A stretch of DNA of 64,000 nt from Parcubacteria group bacterium GW2011_GWA2_43_11 (GCA_000998805.1 LCFC01000002.1:5784-69783); one strand, 5' to 3'; shown: positions 7,045 to 60,960, counted from the first letter of the stretch. Numbers and translations: made by a program. The notes: generated from the letters alone by a model not told the origin.

Positions 7045-7788
7045 TTAGAACTTTGGTAGTTTACTTGAAACACTTCCCACTTCTGCCAATTTTCTTTTTG
7101 CAGAATTCAAGTCATTACGTGCATAAAAATTACCATGATGAACAGGGTGTACTCTATTACTCATTTCTAAATGTTTTATTGGACACCAAGAAGATTCTAT
7201 CTGTTCTAAATTATATGCAATTGTTTCGGCAGAAACTTTATAAAATCTAATAAACGAAATAAATGGGGTTGAAAAATGACCAGCGTAGGAGTCATCGATT
7301 AAGCACTTATGAATGCGCATGTAAGATGCTCTATGTAAGCCCAGTAGTTTTATTAATACAGCTGTTGGAATGGAGGTCAGGAGCAAACCAATGAAAAAAA
7401 ACACAGTTTGTGGAATAAGGTACACGCCAATTAACACACTTTTTATCAATGAAACTTTTTTTAACTGTACAACTTGTTCAAGTTCTGCATTCATCAGTAC
7501 AGTAAGACCATTAGCATACTCACAAAATTGACAATTTAATCTATCAATCCAGTGTAGATCACGAATAGCAAACCTATCAAAGATGATATAGTTTTTTGTG
7601 TAGAGTGGTGGTAAACCTAGGAGTGGACGCAAGATACCTTTGTAAAAAAAAATCGTAATACTCATATGTACAAAAATAAAAAAAGGAATAGTGGTATACA
7701 TGAGCAAGGCTCCCAATAATGTCCTAACAATTCCAATTCTTTTTGAATGTATTCTAAAAATAGAAATTGTAACTATTTTTTCAGTCAT
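7045..7788 (-). CDS. Hypothetical multi-pass membrane protein
   Basis: 247-aa ORF with several hydrophobic helices and Cys pairs (CQFCEYANG, SSWCPIKH). It is tightly packed between neighbouring minus-strand genes. No family was recognised. Confidence 0.6.
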   Translation of the reverse strand: MTEKIVTISIFRIHSKRIGIVRTLLGALLMYTTIPFFIFVHMSITIFFYKGILRPLLGLPPLYTKNYIIFDRFAIRDLHWIDRLNCQFCEYANGLTVLMNAELEQVVQLKKVSLIKSVLIGVYLIPQTVFFFIGLLLTSIPTAVLIKLLGLHRASYMRIHKCLIDDSYAGHFSTPFISFIRFYKVSAETIAYNLEQIESSWCPIKHLEMSNRVHPVHHGNFYARNDLNSAKRKLAEVGSVSSKLPKF

Positions 7789-7856
7789 GTAAAAAGTTTT
7801 TGGCTACGAAAACAAGAATCTATCATTCTAGAGTTTTTTAACTATATTTTAAATAC

Positions 7857-8369
7857 CTAACGCCGCACAAACAAAGAAATACTTGCAAGAGGTGCAATGA
7901 GCCACAACCACAGGGCAGTCGATGACTCAAAAAGACTATTAAGTATAGTACTGAAATTATAGAAATTATCAATCTCAACAATATGATATAGGAGAGCAAT
8001 TCCTAAACCGGACGCAGTCACAGAAAGTGAAATTATTTCAACAAAACGCCAAAATGAATGGATCTGGTACGAAGTATCTATGTAATTCTTTATCGTAAAA
8101 ATACTCCCAACAAGGGCAAGTATAAAAAGCATCAAGGGCTCAAACTTCAGTGGTATGGTACCAGTCACGAAAGGTATACCTCCGTAAAATGGGAAAAAAT
8201 GAGTCACGAGCGCAGTCGGATACAAAGACAGAAGCACTACAAGAAGTGTTTTCTTACCATACGTGAGACCAAGTGCGACAAGTAAAATTATCACACCCAA
8301 CACACCAAAAATATCGGCAGATATATTGCTGAGCGAACTAACTACTGAGCCTGTCGTCTCACTGAACAT
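7857..8369 (-). CDS. Hypothetical membrane protein
   Basis: 170-aa ORF that is almost entirely hydrophobic helices, co-oriented with and downstream of dnaJ. Confidence 0.6.
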   Translation of the reverse strand: MFSETTGSVVSSLSNISADIFGVLGVIILLVALGLTYGKKTLLVVLLSLYPTALVTHFFPFYGGIPFVTGTIPLKFEPLMLFILALVGSIFTIKNYIDTSYQIHSFWRFVEIISLSVTASGLGIALLYHIVEIDNFYNFSTILNSLFESSTALWLWLIAPLASISLFVRR

Positions 8370-8374
8370 TGGTT

Positions 8375-9358
8375 TTAAATACCTTCGTCTCGCAACATTT
8401 CTGCAGCTTTTTTTGCAGAACGTGAAAGCTTATTTGGTACTTGGATTTCTATTTTAACGTACAGGTCCCCCCTCGTTTCAATTTTCTGTGAACTTCCGAG
8501 AAGAGTATCAGTGAGCTTGATAGAGAGTGGCATAACGATATCATACCCTTCCTTTTTGAAACGATGGTCTTGCTTGACATGGATTTTCACATAGAGGTCA
8601 CCAGGCACACCCCCCGATACAGCTTCTCCTCCGCCCGTCATACGTATCATCTCTCCATTGTTAATTCCTGAAGGAACTGCAATAGTCATCTCTTCTTCTC
8701 GGCGCATCACTCCCGCACCTTTACAGGTAGGACACTTTTCTTTTGGAATAAAACCTTTTCCAAAACACACTTCGCATTCACGTGTCGAAGAGAAAGCACC
8801 AAACATGGTTTGCTTTGTCTCATGGACCTTTCCTGCACCATTACATCTTTCACAGGTAACTGTATCAGTCCCTACCTTGGCTCCAGACCCTTTACACACT
8901 TCACAGGTACCAGTCTTCATGAGAAGTACGCGACGTTCCACACCAAAGACAGACTCTTTAAACGTCAGTTCAATATCAATTGAGATATCCCTTCCCCTTT
9001 TCCGCTCCGCACTACGCCCCCCACCACCGAAAATGTCTCCGAAAATATCTCCAAAGTCAAACTCAACATGCTGACCTCCTCCGCCAAAGCCTTGTGTAAA
9101 ACCGGAAAAGTCAAAGCCACCTGCACCTTGTCCACCTCCAGCACCGTTAAACGTCCTGCCGTAAGCATCGTACTCTGCGCGTTTTTTGTCGTCACCCAAG
9201 ACACTGTACGCCTCACCTATCTCTTTGAAACGTTTCTCATCGCCACCTTTTTTATCCGGATGGTACTTATGAGCAAGGCCTCGAAAAGCCTTTTTTATCT
9301 CTTCCTTGGAAGCACTTTTATCAACACCAAGAATGCTGTAGTAATCTTTATTGCTCAT
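8375..9358 (-). CDS. dnaJ: Chaperone DnaJ
   Basis: J-domain with HPD (KYHPDKK), a G/F-rich linker, and four CxxCxGxG zinc motifs (CEVCKGSG, CERCNGAG, CEVCFGKG, CPTCKGAG). At 327 aa it is shorter than typical DnaJ, with a compact C-terminal domain. Confidence 0.95.
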   Translation of the reverse strand: MSNKDYYSILGVDKSASKEEIKKAFRGLAHKYHPDKKGGDEKRFKEIGEAYSVLGDDKKRAEYDAYGRTFNGAGGGQGAGGFDFSGFTQGFGGGGQHVEFDFGDIFGDIFGGGGRSAERKRGRDISIDIELTFKESVFGVERRVLLMKTGTCEVCKGSGAKVGTDTVTCERCNGAGKVHETKQTMFGAFSSTRECEVCFGKGFIPKEKCPTCKGAGVMRREEEMTIAVPSGINNGEMIRMTGGGEAVSGGVPGDLYVKIHVKQDHRFKKEGYDIVMPLSIKLTDTLLGSSQKIETRGDLYVKIEIQVPNKLSRSAKKAAEMLRDEGI

Positions 9359-9383
9359 ATCTATGATTTTTATCTGTATGTTT

Positions 9384-9504
9384 AGGACTTACGCAAACGA
9401 GTGCAGTTCTAGGAAAACGAACAAAAAGGAGTGAGTCCCGCCACGGCGGGATGAACGACATTTTGTGAAGTTTGACAACGAAATGCGCCATTTGCGTATG
9501 TCCT
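9384..9504 (+). repeat. R-family element copy R1 (TIR - core hairpin A - TIR), 121 nt
   Basis: AGGACTTACGCAAACG...CATTTGCGTATGTCCT termini. The core is ACAAAAAGGAGTGAGTCCCGCCACGGCGGGATGAACGACATTTTGT. It fills the dnaK-dnaJ spacer and ends 3 nt from the dnaK stop codon. Confidence 0.9.
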
Positions 9505-9507
9505 ATA

Positions 9508-16137: not shown

Positions 16138-16386
16138 AGGATTACGCAAACGGATACAGTTCGACTTGTCCTCCGTAGCTCCCGGAGGAGCGGAGGAGGA
16201 GGAAAACGAACAAAATGGAGCGCATCCCGCCACAGGCGGGATAGACGACATTTTGTGAAGTTTGACGACGAAATGCAACCTAATTTTTAACGAACGCAGG
16301 GAGTACCTGCGCGTGCGCATGGTTCTTGTGCCCTGTGGGTATAAAAATGGGAACGCTCTTGCGGTACGCCGATTGTATGAGTTCTA
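16138..16386 (+). repeat. R-family element copy R2 (TIR - F - core A - C with an extra 36-nt insert - degenerate TIR), about 249 nt
   Basis: Opens with AGGATTACGCAAACGG and contains ACAAAATGGAGCGCATCCCGCCACAGGCGGGATAGACGACATTTTGTGAAGTTTGACGACG. The right end CGCCGATTGTATGAGTTC is a decayed TIR that abuts the umuD-like stop codon. Confidence 0.85.
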
Positions 16387-17001: not shown

Positions 17002-17176
17002 AGGATTTACGCAAACGGGTGCAGTTCGACTTGTCCGCCGTAGCTCTCGGAGGAACGAAGGTGGAGGCGTCCAAGCAAAATGGAATGAGTTGTATTAACA
17101 ATACTACAAGAGACATTTTTGACGGGCAACGCCTGCCTGCGCAGACAGGATGAAATTCACCCGTTTTCGTAAGTCG
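17002..17176 (+). repeat. R-family element copy R3 (TIR - F - core B - extra hairpin - TIR), 175 nt
   Basis: AGGATTTACGCAAACGGG...CCCGTTTTCGTAAGTCGT termini. The core is GCAAAATGGAATGAGTTGTATTAACAATACTACAAGAGACATTTTTG. It ends 4 nt from the lexA stop codon. Confidence 0.88.
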
Positions 17177-17750: not shown

Positions 17751-17759
17751 ATGTATTTT

Positions 17760-17880
17760 GAGACTTACGTAAACGGCGCATTTATGTGTCAAACTTCACA
17801 AAATGTCGTTCATCCCGCCGTGACGGGACTCACTCCTCTTTGTTCGTTTTCCTAGAACTGCATCCGTTTGCGTAAGCCCT
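17760..17880 (-). repeat. R-family element copy R4 (TIR - core A - TIR), 121 nt; the only copy in inverted orientation
   Basis: The plus strand reads GAGACTTACGTAAACGG CGCATTT...GTCAAACTTCACAAAATGTCGTTCATCCCGCCGTGACGGGACTCACTCC...CCGTTTGCGTAAGCCCT, which is the reverse complement of the R1/R10 layout. Confidence 0.9.
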
Positions 17881-17918
17881 ATCCTATAATTCGTGTTACA
17901 GCAGTCCATACCTACTAC

Positions 17919-27691: not shown

Positions 27692-27726
27692 AAGGTCGAC
27701 GTTTTTTGTCGACCTTGTTTATTTAT
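27692..27726 (+). terminator. Rho-independent terminator
   Basis: AAGGTCGAC-GTTTTTT-GTCGACCTT followed by GTTTATTTAT. Confidence 0.7.
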
Positions 27727-27744
27727 AAAAAAATATGTACGTGT

Positions 27745-27986
27745 AGGACTTACGCAAACGGATGCGACCTAATTTTTAACGACCGCAGGGAGTATAAAAA
27801 TGGAAATACCCTTTTGGTGTAATTCGAGGCGCACAAACAAAATACTACGAGTCGTATGAATAGTACGGTGAGGAGTATTTTGTGTAGCGCAACGATGAAG
27901 TACGACCAATTTTTCTTACGATCCGCCAGCTGGCGGAGAATTAGAAAAATGAAGTACTCTTGTGGTGCGCCGTTTTCGTAAGTCCT
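27745..27986 (+). repeat. R-family element copy R5 (TIR - C - core B variant - D - TIR), 242 nt
   Basis: AGGACTTACGCAAACGG...CCGTTTTCGTAAGTCCT termini. It contains module C (GCGACCTAATTTTTAACGACCGCAGGGAGTATAAAAATGG) and module D (CGACCAATTTTTCTTACGATCCGCCAGCTGGCGGAGAATTAGAAAAATGAAG). It ends 3 nt from the ddl stop codon. Confidence 0.9.
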
Positions 27987-27989
27987 AGA

Positions 27990-28961
27990 TTATTTTCGGG
28001 CGTAGGCACGCTCCACCAAATGCCCAAGGAAGCTCGGCAACGTCGCACCCACAGCCTCGACGGTCTTAGGGAGAAGTGAGGTGGGAGTAAGCCCTGGGAG
28101 ACTATTCACCTCGAGGAAGTACACCCCGTCTCGTGCAACGATAAAATCACTCCGCGAATAGTCACGAAGTCCAAGAGTTTTGTGTACATGCTTGGCGGCA
28201 TGCAGGAGAGCGTCGGTCGTTTCTCTAGTGAATGGTGCGGGACAAAGCTCACGCGCATTCCCTCCACACTTTTCTTTATAATCAAAAAGACTTGAATCAG
28301 TGGTGACTATTTCTATCGGAGGAAATGCATACAGATCTTCCCCACGAAATCCATCCGCTACAGCAACAGTTGCTTCTCTGCCCACAATGTACTTTTCAAT
28401 GAGGACATACTCGGTGTGCGTAAAGGCAATGGTCAGAGCATAGAGCAACTCATCAAACGAGGTCACGAGAGCAGTAGCTACAGACGAGCCACCGTTTACG
28501 GGCTTAACTATGCAAGGTAATGGAAACGTTTGGAAAAGCATAATGACACTTTGCTTACTCATTTCATCTTTATGCAAAAGTCGATGCGGGGCGTGTTTAA
28601 ATGGTGCATCTTTCAAGTATCCTTTGGTAAGCGCTTTGTTCATAGCAATAGCTGAAGACAAGGACCCGCTCCCTGTATAGCGACACCCATGAGAATCCAG
28701 AAAACGCTGTACCTCACCATCCTCACCATACTTCCCATGAAGTGCATTAAACATGACATCTACTTGATCGAGTACTCTTGTCGCCTCTACAGGCATACCG
28801 CGCATATGCCACTGTCCTGACCTATCTACAAGGATATCTTTGACCTCATACCGATCTTTTGAGAGATTTTGCAATACCGATTGTCCCGTCTTGAGTGAGA
28901 CTTCATATTCGGCAGATGGACCACCGCGTAATACCCCTACACGCATCTTGTACATGTACAC
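27990..28961 (-). CDS. ddl: D-alanine--D-alanine ligase
   Basis: 323 aa with an ATP-grasp fold. Signatures include RVGVLRGGPSAEYEVSL, HGKYGEDG and FLEVNSLPGLT. Alternative Met starts exist at 28955 and 28946. Confidence 0.9.
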   Translation of the reverse strand: MYMYKMRVGVLRGGPSAEYEVSLKTGQSVLQNLSKDRYEVKDILVDRSGQWHMRGMPVEATRVLDQVDVMFNALHGKYGEDGEVQRFLDSHGCRYTGSGSLSSAIAMNKALTKGYLKDAPFKHAPHRLLHKDEMSKQSVIMLFQTFPLPCIVKPVNGGSSVATALVTSFDELLYALTIAFTHTEYVLIEKYIVGREATVAVADGFRGEDLYAFPPIEIVTTDSSLFDYKEKCGGNARELCPAPFTRETTDALLHAAKHVHKTLGLRDYSRSDFIVARDGVYFLEVNSLPGLTPTSLLPKTVEAVGATLPSFLGHLVERAYARK

Positions 28962-30252: not shown

Positions 30253-30374
30253 GGGACTTATGCAAACGGATGCAGTTCGAGACGCCCTAGCAAAATGGAA
30301 CAAGTTGTATGAACAATACTACGAGAGACATTTTGTGCAGGGCAACGATGAAATGCGCCGTTTGCATAAGTCCC
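30253..30374 (+). repeat. R-family element copy R6 (TIR - core B - TIR), 122 nt, with a perfectly paired, doubly compensated TIR
   Basis: GGGACTTATGCAAACGG...CCGTTTGCATAAGTCCC termini. It fills the uvrA-uvrC spacer, lying 1 nt from the uvrA stop and 10 nt from the uvrC start. Confidence 0.92.
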
Positions 30375-40353: not shown

Positions 40354-40364
40354 ACAACAATGAT

Positions 40365-40580
40365 AGGACTTACGCAAACGGATGCGACCTAATTTTCAAG
40401 GAGTGAAACGACTATGAAAATGGAAATGCCCTTGCGGTACAGTTCTAGGAAAGCGAACAAAATGGAGCGAGTCCCGCCACGGGCGGGATGAGAGATATTT
40501 TGTGAAGTTTGACAACGAGAATGCGACCAATTTTTCTTACGACTGTAAGGAGTTAGAAAAATGAAGTGCCCTCGTGGTGT
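40365..40580 (+). repeat. R-family element copy R7 (TIR - C - core A - D), right TIR missing
   Basis: AGGACTTACGCAAACGG, then module C with a covarying stem (AATTTTCA/TATGAAAAT), core A and module D. Homology to R5 stops at ...GTGGTG (40580), inside the ybeY ORF. Confidence 0.85.
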
Positions 40581-44624: not shown

Positions 44625-44879
44625 AGACCTACGCAAATGGATGCGACCAATTTTTCTTATGATCCGCCAGCGTGCGGAGAGTTAGAAAAATGAAGTACTC
44701 CTGCTCGCCCCGTATACAGCTATGCTGTTGTACTGGGGTGGTGCAATTCAAGGCGCCAGAACAAAATAGAATGAGTTGTATGAGTAATACTACGAGAGAT
44801 ATTTTGCGACGGGCCCTGTACTAGAGCGAAGCTTCAGTACGGGGCGGGCAACGATGAAGTGCGCCGTTTGCGTAGGTCA
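44625..44879 (+). repeat. R-family element copy R8 (TIR - D with nested hairpin - core B with nested hairpin E - TIR), 255 nt
   Basis: AGACCTACGCAAATGG...CCGTTTGCGTAGGTC termini. Nested hairpins lie at 44708-44738 and 44814-44844, the latter flanked by a duplicated CGGG. Confidence 0.9.
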
Positions 44880-44911
44880 TGTTACAGGCGCTGTTGTTGC
44901 AACTCCTTTCT

Positions 44912-53038: not shown

Positions 53039-53434
53039 TTATTTTTCCGGTTCCATTATGCTGAACACATTTCCTTCAGAATCAAGGCATGAAGCAAAAT
53101 GTCCCACTTTAGCCATGTGCATTTTTGGCATCAAAATTTCACCTCCATGAGCTTCAACTTTTTTCAAAATATCATCAAGTGAGGCAACCTCCACTGTACA
53201 CACAAATCCGTTGACACTTTTGGTACGCTCTTTTGTATCGGTACCCATCTCTTTCCGTAAGCCACCGTTTATTGCTCCTGGGGTTTTGGGGGGTACGGTC
53301 ATAACCATCCAATATTCCATATCCATATCTGGATCTTCCCATTTCTCAAACCTCCAATCAAAAACTTTTGTGTAGAAATCCATAGCTCGTTTAAGATCTA
53401 TGGCAACAATTTCAAAATGAGTAACTTTGTTCAT
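53039..53434 (-). CDS. VOC (glyoxalase/bleomycin-resistance fold) family protein
   Basis: 131 aa with an N-terminal VTHFEIVAIDLKRAMDFYTKVFDW and a C-terminal GHFASCLDSEGNVFSIME. Confidence 0.8.
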   Translation of the reverse strand: MNKVTHFEIVAIDLKRAMDFYTKVFDWRFEKWEDPDMDMEYWMVMTVPPKTPGAINGGLRKEMGTDTKERTKSVNGFVCTVEVASLDDILKKVEAHGGEILMPKMHMAKVGHFASCLDSEGNVFSIMEPEK

Positions 53435-53745
53435 AGTGATTGTATTAGACTTATAAATTATTCCAGTGTATTTTATTTGATCGCCTACAGACAGAATTAT
53501 TTATATTGTAAAACAAAAAGAATGAAAGTTGAGTGAGGGTTTGAATCTAAGTATCCCAATCAATATAGAACAGCACCAAGCGACACTTGATGCTGTACGT
53601 TTTTTATATACATGGATTTCTCGTCAAACGTAAACAAAGGATACAAAATAACCGATTGCAAGCAATCGGTGTTTTGTTACGAGTCTGATTACAAAATATA
53701 AAAGACCTTTATTTTTCAGAATATTCATAGTACAATCGCTTGCAA

Positions 53746-53955
53746 TGGCCCTATCGTCTTCCGCCAGCGGGCGGATCCTCCTGCGGGAGGAAACGGTTAG
53801 GACATCGCCTTCGAGAAGTGAACGGAATGAGATCCATTCCACAAAACCTTTGATGTAATTTAGATCCGCCAGATGGCGGACAAAAAGTATCCAAAAAGTG
53901 TACTGCACCTGTAAGGCGGACGGAGTTTGAAAGAATCGAACGAAATGGTATTATC
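53746..53955 (+). pseudogene. Decayed tandem copy of tRNA-Glu, interrupted by hairpin insertions
   Basis: Positions 1-13 and 14-34 are identical to the downstream tRNA, but they are separated by a 32-nt double-hairpin insert (53759-53790). A 100-nt insert (53812-53911) sits in the anticodon loop. The T arm is disrupted, and the 3' acceptor strand has mutated (TATTATC vs TAGGGTC) so it cannot pair. Confidence 0.7.
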
Positions 53956-53967
53956 ACAGTTGAATAT

Positions 53968-54039
53968 TGGCCCTATCGTCTAACGGTTAGGACATCGCCT
54001 TCTCAAGGCGGTAATCAGAGTTCGATTCTCTGTAGGGTC
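53968..54039 (+). tRNA. tRNA-Glu (anticodon CTC)
   Basis: Manual cloverleaf: acceptor GGCCCTA/TAGGGTC, D stem GTCT/GGAC, anticodon stem TCGCC/GGCGG with loop TTCTCAA, T arm CAGAG-TTCGATT-CTCTG, discriminator A. CCA is not encoded. Confidence 0.9.
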
Positions 54040-54046
54040 ACAAAGG

Positions 54047-54088
54047 TTAGAACAAAACACACTGCGAGCAAGCAGTGTGTTTTGTTCT
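54047..54088. other. Perfect 18-bp hairpin immediately downstream of the tRNA
   Basis: TAGAACAAAACACACTGC-GAGCAA-GCAGTGTGTTTTGTTCTA. It has the same ACAAAA...TTTTGT design as the hairpin at 53643-53677 and the R-family cores. Confidence 0.6.
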
Positions 54089-54351
54089 AGAAAACAAACT
54101 GCTTTGCTTTCGTACCTTTTGTGAGGTCGGAGCATATTTTCTGCTCTTTCCTAGAGCAGAAAATAGCCGAGGCGAGGTGTCGAAGAGCACTTAGTATTTT
54201 AGAAACGAAGTGTCCTAAAATACTTAGGAAAATTATACCAACCACAATTGAGTTAAACCCAATATATCTAATACAAACTTGATTCTTTTTTAAGATTTCA
54301 AATCAAATAACGGATTTCCACTTCATGATTGTTTTTTTCAGATTTTGTACT

Positions 54352-54654
54352 CTAAAAGCCATCTTGAAAACCAATAGGCAAAGAAATAGCAGGAATGTTT
54401 ACAGGTGGTTTAGGAAGTGGACTAGAAGGCGGTATGGGTTTAGGAATTTTAGGAATCGGATTAATGGTAAAGGGATTTCTTAATATATACCAATAGTCAG
54501 CTAATTGGATTAGTTTACCCCTAAAATTACCCCCAATATCCCAAACAATATCACCTTCAACCCAACCTAAATAAAGATTATCACGTGAAAAAACATAATC
54601 GTTTCTGACGAATCCAAGATATTGACCTGTTGACTTAAAAATATATTTTTCCAT
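54352..54654 (-). CDS. Small repeat protein (4-fold beta-flower-like N-terminus, Pro-rich tail)
   Basis: 100 aa with a periodic pattern YIFKSTGQYLGFVRNDYVFSRDNLYLGWVEGDIVWDIGGNFRGKL, then PIPKIPKPIPPSSPLPKPP. Its start lies 2 nt after the protease stop. The family name is from memory. Confidence 0.5.
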   Translation of the reverse strand: MEKYIFKSTGQYLGFVRNDYVFSRDNLYLGWVEGDIVWDIGGNFRGKLIQLADYWYILRNPFTINPIPKIPKPIPPSSPLPKPPVNIPAISLPIGFQDGF

Positions 54655-55611: not shown

Positions 55612-56919
55612 CTATTTAATATTCTTCCAGTGCGAATCCTGACGCACGAGAAGATTTATCGCTGAGGGTGATTCAAGCATAATATTCTCAACTATACGTT
55701 CCATACGCATTCCCTGACTTCCCTTCACAAACACCACATCATCTTCAGCAATTATTTCCTGAAGCGTTTTGATTGCTTCTTCACTTGTTTTAAATGCCAT
55801 AACACTGGTACATCGCGCCTTGGTCGCTTGTACAAGTTCAGCAGCTCCTAGCATACGCACACCTACTGCCACGAACACATCTGCCTCTGTTGCTACCAAC
55901 TCACCTATCATCTTGTGCTCCTGAACAGAGAAATCTCCGAGCTCTAGCATGTCACCCAATACTACTATCTTCTTACCTTTTACCTGAAGTGTCGTAAGTG
56001 CTTCGAGTCCTGCTCGTACCGCTACAGGTGAGCTATTGTAGGTATCATCCACAATCGTTGACCCTTTCATGCCCTGAAGAAGTCGCATTCTCCCTGGCGC
56101 TAAAATATGGTTACTCAAATCAAGTGCTGACTTCTCAAAGGCTTTACCCTCAGAAATAATCACCGTCAATGCTGCAAGTAGTGGGTATACATGATGTCTC
56201 CCTAACACACCATCAAGGTTGACTTGAGCTTTTTTTTCTTGAAATTGTGCAGTAAAAGAAATACCCACAGGCTTTCCCTCTTCATACATAATCATGTAGT
56301 CGTACCCACGCACTGTGGCATGCTCAGAAAACCCATACGATAACCTATGCTGCCCCTCACGCACTTCTTCGGAACTCATTTTAGAATCGTCTGCATTTAT
56401 AATAAGCGTCCCCTCAGGCTTGAGGGTGTCTTTAAGTTTGCATTTTTCTTTTCGTACATCTTCCGGTGATGCGAAATACTCTACGTGCACTGGGACATCG
56501 GGAAATTGCGTAAATATAACCACATCAGAATTGAGCCATGACAGTCTCTGAATATCCCCTGGTCTATCTACACCTATTTCCAATACCAGCCAGTCGGGGT
56601 ATGCGTTATGCCTCCACGGTAAAATAAATCCTTCACCAATGTTTTCTATCCAACCCATCATGCTTGACCATGCATTTGGCAGTCCCAACACAGTCAGAGG
56701 AACACCTATTTCACTATTAAAACTTTTTTCACTTTTTCGTGCATGTTCCGTCTGAGAAAGTATCGTATATACCGCGTCTTTCGTCCCTGTCTTGCCCACA
56801 CTTCCCGTCACTGTAATTATCTTCGGCTTAAACTTTCGCACGACCCTTTTTGCTTCCCATATCAGAATTGCGACAATACCTTTTTTAATCGTTTCCTTCA
56901 TACACAAAATGACTTTCAA
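55612..56919 (-). CDS. murF: UDP-N-acetylmuramoyl-tripeptide--D-alanyl-D-alanine ligase
   Basis: 435 aa. It has the Mur ligase P-loop VTGSVGKTGTKD and central and C-terminal Mur ligase domains, in a dcw context. Confidence 0.9.
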   Translation of the reverse strand: MKVILCMKETIKKGIVAILIWEAKRVVRKFKPKIITVTGSVGKTGTKDAVYTILSQTEHARKSEKSFNSEIGVPLTVLGLPNAWSSMMGWIENIGEGFILPWRHNAYPDWLVLEIGVDRPGDIQRLSWLNSDVVIFTQFPDVPVHVEYFASPEDVRKEKCKLKDTLKPEGTLIINADDSKMSSEEVREGQHRLSYGFSEHATVRGYDYMIMYEEGKPVGISFTAQFQEKKAQVNLDGVLGRHHVYPLLAALTVIISEGKAFEKSALDLSNHILAPGRMRLLQGMKGSTIVDDTYNSSPVAVRAGLEALTTLQVKGKKIVVLGDMLELGDFSVQEHKMIGELVATEADVFVAVGVRMLGAAELVQATKARCTSVMAFKTSEEAIKTLQEIIAEDDVVFVKGSQGMRMERIVENIMLESPSAINLLVRQDSHWKNIK

Positions 56920-56947
56920 TTGCTTTTACTGATAAATAATATCTTCT

Positions 56948-57069
56948 AGGACTTACGCAAACGGGTGAAATTCAAGGCGCCCGAACAAAATAGAACGAGT
57001 TGTATGAATAATACTACGAGAGATATTTTGTGACGGGCAACGATGAAGTACACCGTTTCCGTAAGTCCT
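56948..57069 (+). repeat. R-family element copy R9 (TIR - core B - TIR), 122 nt
   Basis: AGGACTTACGCAAACGG...CCGTTTCCGTAAGTCCT termini. The core is ACAAAATAGAACGAGTTGTATGAATAATACTACGAGAGATATTTTGT. It fills the ftsI-murF spacer and ends 3 nt from the ftsI stop. Confidence 0.92.
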
Positions 57070-57072
57070 GGC

Positions 57073-58791
57073 TTATCTATCTGGTGGTATATCATAGTAG
57101 TTAATCAAAAAGTCGACAAGTTCCATAAAAGGCGCGGTTAGAGTTTCAGAGGCGTATCTGGCTCCTTGCGGTTCCAAATGATACAAGAAAATAATAAACC
57201 TTGGTTCATACGCTGGGAAGTACCCAAAGAAAGAATGAAGATATCTGTCATCATAATACCCACGTTCACCATCATGCGCCATCTGTGCTGTACCTGTTTT
57301 AGCTGCTATGGCGTAGTGCTCTTTCGCAACAGTGCCCCCTCGTAGCGCATCATCTACCACATTAACAAGCATTTGTGTTATTTCACGAGACGTATCTTCT
57401 GAAATGACCTGTACATGATCATCCGGAGCTACAGACGCTTCAGCACCGTTTTCATACTGAATGTGTGTAACAAAATGAGGTGTAACCAGATACCCACCAT
57501 TACCAAGGGCGGCAAGCGCTCGCACTGTTGCGATAGGTGTAAGTGCTATACCTTGTCCGAACGCGGCAGTCGCATACTCTACTCTACGGGGACTGTCGAG
57601 ATTGTTAATGAGTCCTCGCGCCTCGAACGGAATATCTATACCGGTCTCTTCACCAAAACCAAACGCTTTCATACGCTCACCGAGCACCTTGCCACCCACC
57701 TTGTCGGCCACAAACGACATACCGAGATTGAGGGATTGATTTAACACCTCCTGCATAGGCACCACACCACGCGCTCCCCCATCGTAGTTGCTAATTTTGT
57801 ACCCATCAACCGTAATGTTTCCCGTATCGTTGTACGTTGTATCTTGAGTGACTGCCCCCTCATCAAGACCTATGGCCATAGCAATAGGTTTAATAATCGA
57901 ACCCATCTCGTACACGTCCTCAACAAACGGATTGCGAAAAACGCGTGCATCTTTTTCCTCAGAGTACAGATTTGAATCAAATGATGGAAGCGCACTCATT
58001 GCATATATTGCTCCTGTCTTGGGGTCCATGATTATACCCGCAAGCTGTTTTGCCCCCCACTCGTCTTGTGTTTTGAGTAATACTCTATCAAGTGCTTGTT
58101 GTACCGCAGGCTCAATACTGGTCACCACACTTCCCACACGCGGGGTCTCTTCAGACGAAAACGCTTCACGCGCATTCGTAAAAATCTCGGCAAAAAAGTT
58201 GACATACAATCTATCCGTTTGTCGTTCAAGTACAGACTCCCAATAGCGCTCAAGTCCATACTGCCCTTTTTGAGTAATGCCGTCTTCGCCAAATCCTACA
58301 AAGCCCAGTACGAGACTCGCCATGGATCCGCCTGGGTAGTACCTCCATTGCTCACGGAAAAGTTGAACGCCTTTCAAATCTTCTTTCTCTATCAGTTCAG
58401 CGGCTTCCGGAGTAACATGTCGAGCCATTTCTTCGTATGGGTCCTCTGTTTTTCCCGCACGCGCAAAAAAAAGCTCTTTATCAATATCCATGTGTTTCCG
58501 CAAGGTATCATACACATGTTGTGCATCCTCTATCTGATTAGGATTTAAAGCCAACATATACCCACTCTTGAGCGAAGCTGCTGCAATACGCTCACCATTT
58601 CGCAAGGTGAAGAAAATTGAACCTCTATCAAAAATATCACGTGAAGAACGTACGTATTGATTGTTAGCTTCAGCTCTATAGCTCTGCCCATGAGCAACCT
58701 GCAATATATATAATCGGACGATGATAATACATGCAAAGATAACAATACCTACAACGAGGATTCGTATGCGAATTAATAGTTGCGTACGCAT
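57073..58791 (-). CDS. ftsI: Penicillin-binding protein (FtsI/PBP2-type transpeptidase)
   Basis: 572 aa with an N-terminal TM segment, SxxK (GSIIKP), KTGTAQ, and dcw cluster position. Confidence 0.9.
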   Translation of the reverse strand: MRTQLLIRIRILVVGIVIFACIIIVRLYILQVAHGQSYRAEANNQYVRSSRDIFDRGSIFFTLRNGERIAAASLKSGYMLALNPNQIEDAQHVYDTLRKHMDIDKELFFARAGKTEDPYEEMARHVTPEAAELIEKEDLKGVQLFREQWRYYPGGSMASLVLGFVGFGEDGITQKGQYGLERYWESVLERQTDRLYVNFFAEIFTNAREAFSSEETPRVGSVVTSIEPAVQQALDRVLLKTQDEWGAKQLAGIIMDPKTGAIYAMSALPSFDSNLYSEEKDARVFRNPFVEDVYEMGSIIKPIAMAIGLDEGAVTQDTTYNDTGNITVDGYKISNYDGGARGVVPMQEVLNQSLNLGMSFVADKVGGKVLGERMKAFGFGEETGIDIPFEARGLINNLDSPRRVEYATAAFGQGIALTPIATVRALAALGNGGYLVTPHFVTHIQYENGAEASVAPDDHVQVISEDTSREITQMLVNVVDDALRGGTVAKEHYAIAAKTGTAQMAHDGERGYYDDRYLHSFFGYFPAYEPRFIIFLYHLEPQGARYASETLTAPFMELVDFLINYYDIPPDR

Positions 58792-60705: not shown

Positions 60706-60798
60706 AATGAGTATTTTGTCTTACCTATTTATCCACAAAAAAACAATACGGAAAGGAAAATTATCCTTGTAATAAAAGACTATTTCAATTACTTACCT

Positions 60799-60919
60799 AG
60801 GACTTTCCCAAACGTCGTACTTCTAGGAAAACGAACAAAATGGAGTGAGTCCCGCCACGGGCGGGATGAACGACATTTTGTGAAGTTTGACAACGAAATG
60901 CGGCGTTTGGGTAAGTCCC
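60799..60919 (+). repeat. R-family element copy R10 (TIR - core A - TIR), 121 nt
   Basis: AGGACTTTCCCAAACG...CGTTTGGGTAAGTCCC termini with a compensated G>C/C>G pair. Core A is identical to R1 apart from one base. It lies in the divergent mraZ / relA spacer. Confidence 0.92.
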
Positions 60920-60960
60920 ATTCTTGCTTGGAAAGAACAAATGTCGCATAGTGTACAAGT

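Follow-up and report, generated by a model that had tools for sequence, protein, structure and literature searches.

A conserved structured module in an interrupted tRNA-Glu copy of a Parcubacteria genome and at tRNA-Glu genes of related bacteria

Directly upstream of an intact tRNA-Glu(CTC) gene of Parcubacteria group bacterium GW2011_GWA2_43_11 lies a partial copy of the same gene that is broken up by inserted sequence, which raises the question of what these inserts are and how a tRNA gene came to house them. The locus was analysed within a window of 64 kb (LCFC01000002.1:5784-69783; GCA_000998805.1), the whole stretch of DNA considered here, in which the tRNA-Glu(CTC) is the sole tRNA found by ARAGORN. 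The product of the protease gene adjoining the locus is 100% identical to 'Protease Do' of this organism, and contig LCCJ01000003.1 (GCA_000997835.1) as well as groundwater metagenomes contain the same locus. In two same-species contigs (L001 and L002) the tRNA region is identical to that of the window, interrupted copy included. The parts of the locus are as follows:

53634-53680, + strand: older duplicate of the tRNA trailer, with ACAAAGG, a hairpin and a T-run (repeat comparison; terminator-like site at 53651-53670)
53747-53759, + strand: copy of tRNA positions 1-13, i.e. acceptor 5' strand, positions 8-9 and D-stem 5' strand (exact repeat of 53969-53981)
53760-53791, + strand: two tandem GC-clamp mini-hairpins, TCCGCC-AGCG-GGCGGA and TCCTCC-TGCG-GGAGGA, between tRNA positions 13 and 14
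53792-53812, + strand: copy of tRNA positions 14-34, i.e. D loop, D-stem 3' strand, anticodon-stem 5' strand and loop to C34 (exact repeat of 53982-54002)
53802-53927, + strand: module A, a conserved structured module (covariance model R2 from other species)
53920-53968, + strand: stretch 3' of module A, with the T-stem 5' strand remnant GGAGTT, an antisense T arm, a promoter-like site and the 5' leader of the real tRNA
53969-54040, + strand: intact tRNA-Glu(CTC) (Rfam tRNA model, 60.1 bits; 53969-54041 by ARAGORN; CCA not encoded)
54048-54089, + strand: trailer terminator of the tRNA, a perfect 18-bp hairpin (inverted repeat)

The tRNA-derived segments of the upstream copy match the neighbouring gene at 34/34 positions. 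The first, tRNA positions 1-13 with one leader base, is TGGCCCTATCGTCT (53746-53759, identical to 53968-53981), the second is AACGGTTAGGACATCGCCTTC (53792-53812, identical to 53982-54002), and both hairpins of the 32-nt D-arm insert between them are perfect, with 0 such hairpins expected in shuffles. An earlier note on this DNA had described exactly this architecture, two faithful tRNA segments around a 32-nt insert of two hairpins, and was right to do so, although it placed every segment one base too low (the tRNA at 53968-54039 rather than 53969-54040). Its reading of the copy as a pseudogene also stands: ARAGORN made no call on 53747-53966 in default, intron or pseudogene mode, nor after the inserts had been removed in silico, and the Rfam tRNA model had no match in the upstream copy at E≤10. 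The candidate acceptor 3' strand, TATTATC, is unable to pair with GGCCCTA. The interpretation of the upstream copy as a non-functional, interrupted tRNA-Glu is thus supported.

The decayed T loop and acceptor strand that had been proposed for the region beyond the inserts could not be upheld, as 107/1000 shuffles did at least as well as 53920-53968 when aligned with the tRNA's 3' part. This stretch contains AGAATCGAAC (53932-53941), the reverse complement of the T arm, and a promoter-like TTGAAA-16-TGgTATTAT (53927-53954), recognised by consensus match only; the antisense T-arm piece is also present in L027 and L036, at -35 to -37. A duplicated promoter was considered and rejected, the regions upstream of the two copies not being significantly similar (771/1000 shuffles equal or better). 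Farther upstream, 53634-53680 is 74% identical to 54040-54081 in a repeat search, with a local alignment score of 35 against a shuffle maximum of 24 (0/500 shuffles); a duplicated trailer and terminator ~400 nt upstream suggests that an older, fully decayed tRNA-Glu unit may lie ahead of the interrupted copy. At 53675/53676, directly after this upstream terminator hairpin, L001 (4709-4835) and L002 have an additional 122-127-nt AT-rich insert that is missing from the window, a strain polymorphism.

Relatives of the locus were sought in metagenome contigs, the pattern being the stretch of the tRNA from its D arm to its anticodon arm. The scan yielded 120 loci with ~75 different tRNA-Glu(CTC) sequences, evidently from many related uncultured species; its pattern demanded an intact anticodon arm, and genomes whose sole tRNA-Glu carries the module are invisible to it. 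Retrieval by synteny through the flanking protease did not reach beyond the species: a scan of genome contigs returned one unrelated 35% match only, and in the closest relative (L006, 69% identity) the tRNA-Glu is missing from the locus. The gene order PBP, Mur-ligase-family protein, tRNA-Glu on a single strand is kept in ~40/120 loci; in the window (55612-58791) the tRNA block is inverted relative to the PBP and Mur-ligase-family genes, and genes for a trypsin-like protease and a beta-flower protein lie in between.

None of the 120 loci has a second tRNA within 700 nt, and the flanks of 51/122 loci hold pieces of at least 10 nt of their own tRNA. Some 120-230 nt ahead of the gene, other loci repeatedly have a 5' copy that stops at position 33 or 34. 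The breakpoint after position 34 is common to most upstream copies, two of which stop at position 33, and in several species the copy is split by inserts at differing D-arm positions, with GC hairpins after positions 10-12 in L036, L038, L062 and L073/L119. At least 13 other sequence variants likewise have module A after position 34, ahead of their tRNA-Glu(CTC). The locus is no private accident; module A is a recurring element and probably a mobile one.

In the upstream copies, tRNA position 34 is followed by GA(G/A)AGGT(T)GA, a hairpin, (G)CAAGACC and helix P2 with a variable apical hairpin, and P2 by the near-invariant GTGTACTG, a P3 hairpin of the form NNNC-TGTAA-GNNN and tRNA positions 44 to ~57. 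The corresponding parts in the window are:

Boundary after tRNA position 34, + strand: junction of GCCTTC with GAGAAGTGA
53824-53840, + strand: hairpin GGAATG-AGATC-CATTCC
53847-53852, + strand: P2 5' strand, CCTTTG
53856-53889, + strand: P2 apical extension with the GATCCGCCAGATGGCGGA clamp
53892-53898, + strand: P2 3' strand, CAAAAAG
53898-53905, + strand: the conserved GTGTACTG
53906-53918, + strand: P3, CACC-TGTAA-GGCG

Covariance model R2, built from 14 sequences from other loci with the window excluded, gave a single significant match in the 64-kb window (53802-53927, 52.3 bits, E 4e-10); the family is defined by P2, the GUGUACUG junction and P3 with its UGUAA loop, all after tRNA position 34. 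Because a model drawn from other species matches this interval, the AAGGCGG at 53913-53919, at which the tRNA was previously thought to resume, is the loop and 3' strand of P3 and not resumed tRNA; in other species the P3 stem does not match the local tRNA and covaries independently of it. Compensatory changes were found in P2 (CCTGT/ACAGG, CTTGT/ACAAG, CCTTG/CAAGG) and in P3 (CCCC/GGGG, CGTC/GACG, CTTC/GAAG). Across 28 model-aligned copies, in an alignment that was fitted to the model and thereby favours the structure, 95% of the cells of P2 and P3 were paired, compared with 73% in shuffles; 14/16 pairs had double changes, which 0/500 shuffles reached, and slid controls were 37-58% paired. 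In at least 14 sequence variants, the single-stranded GUGUACUG motif and the UGUAA loop are invariant. The copy in the window has a degenerate look. No other upstream copy with both halves of the module scores as low (52 bits, against 87-132 for the others), P3 contains an A.C mismatch, P2 is bulged, a terminator lies upstream and a promoter-like site inside.

At permissive thresholds, Rfam 15 gave no meaningful match in 53400-54400 (E≤10), and seven other loci with the module had no match at all (E≤5); a literature search found no description of module A. T-box, K-turn, hammerhead, group I and tRNA-Tyr-anticodon-mimic readings were considered by eye and set aside for want of support from any tool. 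Scanned against viral contigs, the tRNA pattern gave 0 matches and the module motif 45, all at chance level and all without a P3 hairpin.

In 26/26 tRNA-linked matches the core motif shares the strand of the tRNA, at -53 to -76 (second tandem copies at ~-250) or at +155 to +267; the remaining matches are two stand-alone copies elsewhere and two unrelated ones by chance. Of the stand-alone copies, that of L062 is accompanied by inverted repeats of 10 bp and a direct repeat of 8 bp, and that of L117 has short direct repeats on its flanks. Two module units stand in tandem in L025, L036 and L102. In L118, L123 and L015 the tRNA-like 5' part has decayed and the module still scores 119-129 bits; the conserved entity is the module and not the tRNA copy. 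Upstream copies differ from the adjacent gene only at stem positions where natural alleles vary and never in the invariant D arm (L025, L062, L118), as with GGCCCCA/AGAGCC versus GGCCTTA/ATAGCC in L025. This suggests that upstream copy and adjacent intact tRNA may be of different origins, the differences being mostly C/T at positions 5-6 and a weak discriminator.

Structured elements also follow the tRNA gene. The window contains one that recurs in other species:

54079-54205, + strand: module B, a conserved trailer element of the form ..TTTGTGAGGTCGGAGC-hairpin-GCCGAGGCGAGGTGTCGAAGAGC-hairpin (alignment to other species' downstream regions)

Module B aligned to the regions downstream of tRNA-Glu in L118, L027 and L110 with scores of 38-58, against shuffle maxima of 27-36 (0/500), and its motif type (GACGGAGC...GAGTCGGG..CGCGAG) is nested within module A in L062, L102 and L025. 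In a survey of the first 400 nt after the tRNA, a further type of element was seen that comprises, in this order, a terminator palindrome, an antisense copy of the tRNA 3' end with a hairpin inside it, structured modules and a sense copy of positions ~54-72 (L025, L036, L038, L052, L054, L067, L068, L075, L090, L093, L094, L095, L107, L110 and L111). In some loci it is tandemly repeated, and the downstream modules of L015, L038, L053, L075, L093 and L094 include a GGTACTG and CTGTAAG hairpin of module A type.

The explanation that we tentatively prefer, while putting it a little below an even chance, is that the interrupted copy is a relic, left by a structured element that inserted or integrated into the anticodon loop of tRNA-Glu and was later given GC hairpins. 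Under this explanation, a copy of the tRNA-Glu gene would have received in its anticodon loop, after position 34, the ~100-nt module A, whose family lives specifically at tRNA-Glu(CUC) genes of Parcubacteria/CPR bacteria. The intact tRNA-Glu immediately 3' would either have been carried in by the element or made by duplication and would keep the cell viable, while the disrupted copy would have lost its 3' end and be decaying. The identity of the tRNA segments to their neighbour would then reflect a recent event or gene conversion, and the small GC-clamp hairpins, a pair in the D arm and a third at the tip of a module helix, would be later additions. Arrival would have been by site-specific recombination or homing, with the element now a relic in this genome.

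The boundary of the insert is consistent with such a history. A sharp junction recurs after position 34, followed by GA(G/A)AGGT, in most upstream copies, and the resulting GCC-TTC-GA(G/A)AGGT resembles an anticodon arm, which would give it the attL-type look expected of a recombinase that uses the anticodon stem-loop as a quasi-palindromic site. It may represent an attL-like junction of a serine-recombinase element centred on that stem-loop. In 10 loci (L021, L030, L031, L034, L051, L063, L081, L109, L125 and L129), ORFs for large serine recombinases extend into tRNA-Glu on its antisense strand, their reading frames entering the 3' part of the tRNA; a Resolvase domain was confirmed for the ORF of L051, the locus with the highest-scoring module A. 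Such opposite-strand recombinase genes point to integrative elements that would use CPR tRNA genes and carry replacement tRNA sequence. The link between recombinase and module is circumstantial, because the two occur together in L051 and L125 only (2/10). In the nearest relative, L006, a serine recombinase (7394-9076) abuts tRNA-Met. The coincidence of recombinase stop positions (+14, +37 to +49) with the breakpoints in the window was discarded as evidence, being due to antisense-strand stop codons of the tRNA.

Other genes and segments that may be mobile adjoin tRNA-Glu in some of these genomes. An intact small GIY-YIG ORF lies between a hairpin-interrupted partial copy and the intact tRNA in L073 (9052-9297) and L119 (4231-4476), and in L124 such an ORF (2521-2736) is directly upstream of the tRNA. 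This placement is reminiscent of the free-standing GIY-YIG homing endonucleases of tRNA gene clusters, e.g. SegB of phage T4 (PMC2330249), but the window has no such ORF and the link to module A is positional only. In L107 (1413-8000), 19 nt of the tRNA 3' end recur as a direct repeat 6.5 kb downstream and enclose MazF-like toxin and helicase genes, likely marking a genomic island with no recognisable integrase.

Known att-site scars and CIMEs at tRNA genes resemble the locus in their sharp recurrent boundary within a tRNA, the partial copy beside an intact gene and tandem accretion, and related genomes have both recombinases abutting tRNA-Glu and islands bounded by tRNA 3'-end repeats. They differ in that here the 5' portion (1-34) and a 44-57 fragment are duplicated instead of the usual 3' end, the retained element is ~100-190 nt long with RNA-like covarying helices, and neither a recombinase nor a second att junction accompanies it in the window. 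Some observations count against a relic. The 64-kb window holds no serine recombinase homologue, no transposase and no displaced tRNA 3' half, and a matching attR or distal copy of positions 35-72 was found in no locus. Covariation and strict strand specificity are, moreover, what would be expected of a functional RNA. For the resident-specific T-stem fragment (positions 44-57) 3' of the module, a local tRNA copy that received an insertion is a better fit than a simple att junction.

The main rival takes these RNA-like features at face value. Here module A and the tRNA-like 5' piece would form a functional non-coding RNA, a ~200-nt 5' leader that is co-transcribed with the tRNA and released by RNase P, and which might serve in processing or stability, bind a protein or act as a small ribozyme. 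We regard this as possible, if on the unlikely side. It would account for two strongly covarying helices, for invariant single-stranded motifs and for a module that always lies on the tRNA strand at a fixed distance and persists despite decay of the tRNA-like part. The window has no called terminator-like site between module and tRNA, no obvious promoter was seen by eye between them in most other species, and the lack of a family in Rfam 15 would make this an undescribed class of RNA. The distribution of the module speaks against such a role, as it was found upstream in only ~17/105 loci with enough upstream sequence (~16%) and is missing in organisms with an identical tRNA: L087, L092, L110 and L129 share the tRNA of the window and have no upstream copy, L068 and L022 share it and have a partial copy without the module, and L094, with the same tRNA as the module-bearing L015 and a closely similar downstream element, shows none in 151 nt upstream. 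An internal deletion variant exists in L071, which relative to the otherwise near-identical contigs L017/L086 has lost 62 nt between two CTGTAAGAC repeats. Tandem amplification, stand-alone copies with flanking direct repeats and the state of the window copy, i.e. lowest-scoring, with mismatched helices, behind a terminator and with a promoter-like site before the tRNA, likewise weigh against a leader RNA. Patchiness, deletion, amplification and flanking repeats are at the same time mobile-like traits of a dispensable element, in favour of the relic.

A broader proposal, to which we assign a rather low probability, is that module A is an undescribed functional structured nucleic acid of CPR tRNA-Glu genes, whether a minimal intron-like or self-processing RNA or the folded recognition element of a new mobile element that homes to tRNA anticodon loops. 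Module B, the clamp hairpins and the R family would then belong to one modular system on tRNA scaffolds.

The R family enters the argument through the GC-rich hairpins. It is a mosaic intergenic repeat in which an outer stem of 18 bp, TAGGACTTACGCAAACGG...CCGTTTGCGTAAGTCCTA, encloses hairpin modules that are interchangeable, and at least 10 copies occur in the 64 kb, an unusual number in a CPR genome, streamlined as these are:

9383-9506, 16138-16305, 17002-17131, 17759-17881, 27744-27990: R-family copies
30254-30373, 40364-40579, 44630-44880, 56949-57068, 60798-60921: R-family copies, continued

The longest R element (27725-27995) folds at -95 kcal/mol (z = -7.1, 0/200 shuffles) and has no Rfam match. 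A rival that extends the view of the earlier note, of hairpin modules invading a tandem tRNA-Glu pseudogene at its loops, is that the locus is a private, recent tandem duplicate of tRNA-Glu whose loops are being randomly invaded by the genome's own R-family hairpin modules. The 34/34 identity to the neighbour would suit a recent duplicate, as would the similar leaders just 5' of both copies in several species; the genome is rich in R-family repeats and GC-clamp hairpins, and one clamp hairpin is common to the locus and to the R elements at 27922 and 44660. The core of the GATCCGCCAGATGGCGGA at 53863-53880 matches the TCCGCCAGCTGGCGGA at 27922-27937 with a score of 33, against a shuffle maximum of 26, and this clamp is the variable apical part of P2. 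The claim that the 100-nt insert carries an R-family clamp stands for these ~20 nt, and the insert proved to be a member of the module A family: R similarity ends beyond ~20 nt, the other comparisons of the insert with R elements were at shuffle level, the module A models miss the R elements, and the R outer stem is absent around every insert. The insert is homologous to elements at the equal tRNA position in many species, D-arm GC hairpins occur in other species too, and none of the ~120 related loci has two intact tRNA genes in tandem. Differing tRNAs and flanks also exclude contamination by a single organism as the source of the cross-species matches. A private duplicate is thus largely refuted, and we consider it improbable.

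The suggestion that hairpin modules and tRNA scaffolds are evolutionarily linked fared better in part, as tRNA-Glu loci are indeed embedded in modular structured elements, with a direct R-family relation for the clamp hairpin alone. This hairpin is the sole significant R-family link both to the tRNA locus of the window and to tRNA-Glu loci of other species, where ATCCGCCNGCTGGCGGAGAAT matches at 20/21 positions between 27921-27941 and L090. A common origin of R outer stems and antisense tRNA 3' ends was rejected (median z ~0, the clamp hairpin alone being shared), and a deeper link between R modules and tRNA scaffolds is no more than a lead. Palindromic mobile repeats (Rickettsia palindromic elements, mitochondrial GC clusters and double-hairpin elements, REP/BIME, MITEs) offer a parallel in their short GC-rich hairpins in an AT-rich genome, their modular nested layout, their insertion into loops of RNA genes and, for the R family, many dispersed copies in the genome. 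Unlike these, the inserts in the window lack terminal inverted repeats and target-site duplications (junctions GTCT/TCCGCC...GGAGGA/AACG and CTTC/GAGAAG...CCTGT/AAGG), the host is a dead gene copy, and the large insert is a target-specific conserved module rather than a dispersed repeat.

Lastly, a genuine intron-containing or split tRNA, with the inserts removed or the 5' half joined in trans to a downstream 3' half, possibly as an isoacceptor, is very improbable: the positions of the D-loop and anticodon-loop inserts resemble those of archaeal multi-intron tRNAs (bulge-helix-bulge introns, split tRNAs), the boundary after position 34 is that of the cyanobacterial tRNA-Leu group I intron, the insert is structured with a conserved core and variable peripheral hairpins, and T34 in place of C34 in L027 and L025u1 would give UUC, but a T-stem 3' strand and acceptor 3' strand, and so a 3' exon, were found neither in the window nor in any of the 14 sequence variants, most copies have C34 as in their neighbour, several 5' parts have decayed, the Rfam intron families, group I included, match neither 53400-54400 nor seven other module-bearing loci, a group I core would not fit into 100 nt, there is no splicing endonuclease context, and an uninterrupted gene is always alongside in the loci retrieved, all by a pattern with an intact anticodon arm.

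The pseudogene reading of this locus is right but incomplete, its main content being a conserved, unannotated module tied to CPR tRNA-Glu genes. The CPR, or Patescibacteria, make up a very large and barely characterised share of bacterial diversity, and their rRNA genes have unusual insertions. To these can now be added a CPR tRNA gene that is a recurrent home of modular, structurally conserved elements missing from RNA databases, and for annotation such loci should be read neither as tRNA introns nor as simple pseudogenes. If the module is mobile, it would be a new target-specific element with candidate recombinase and homing-endonuclease partners; if it is instead a functional leader RNA, it would be a new class of RNA tied to the expression of tRNA-Glu.
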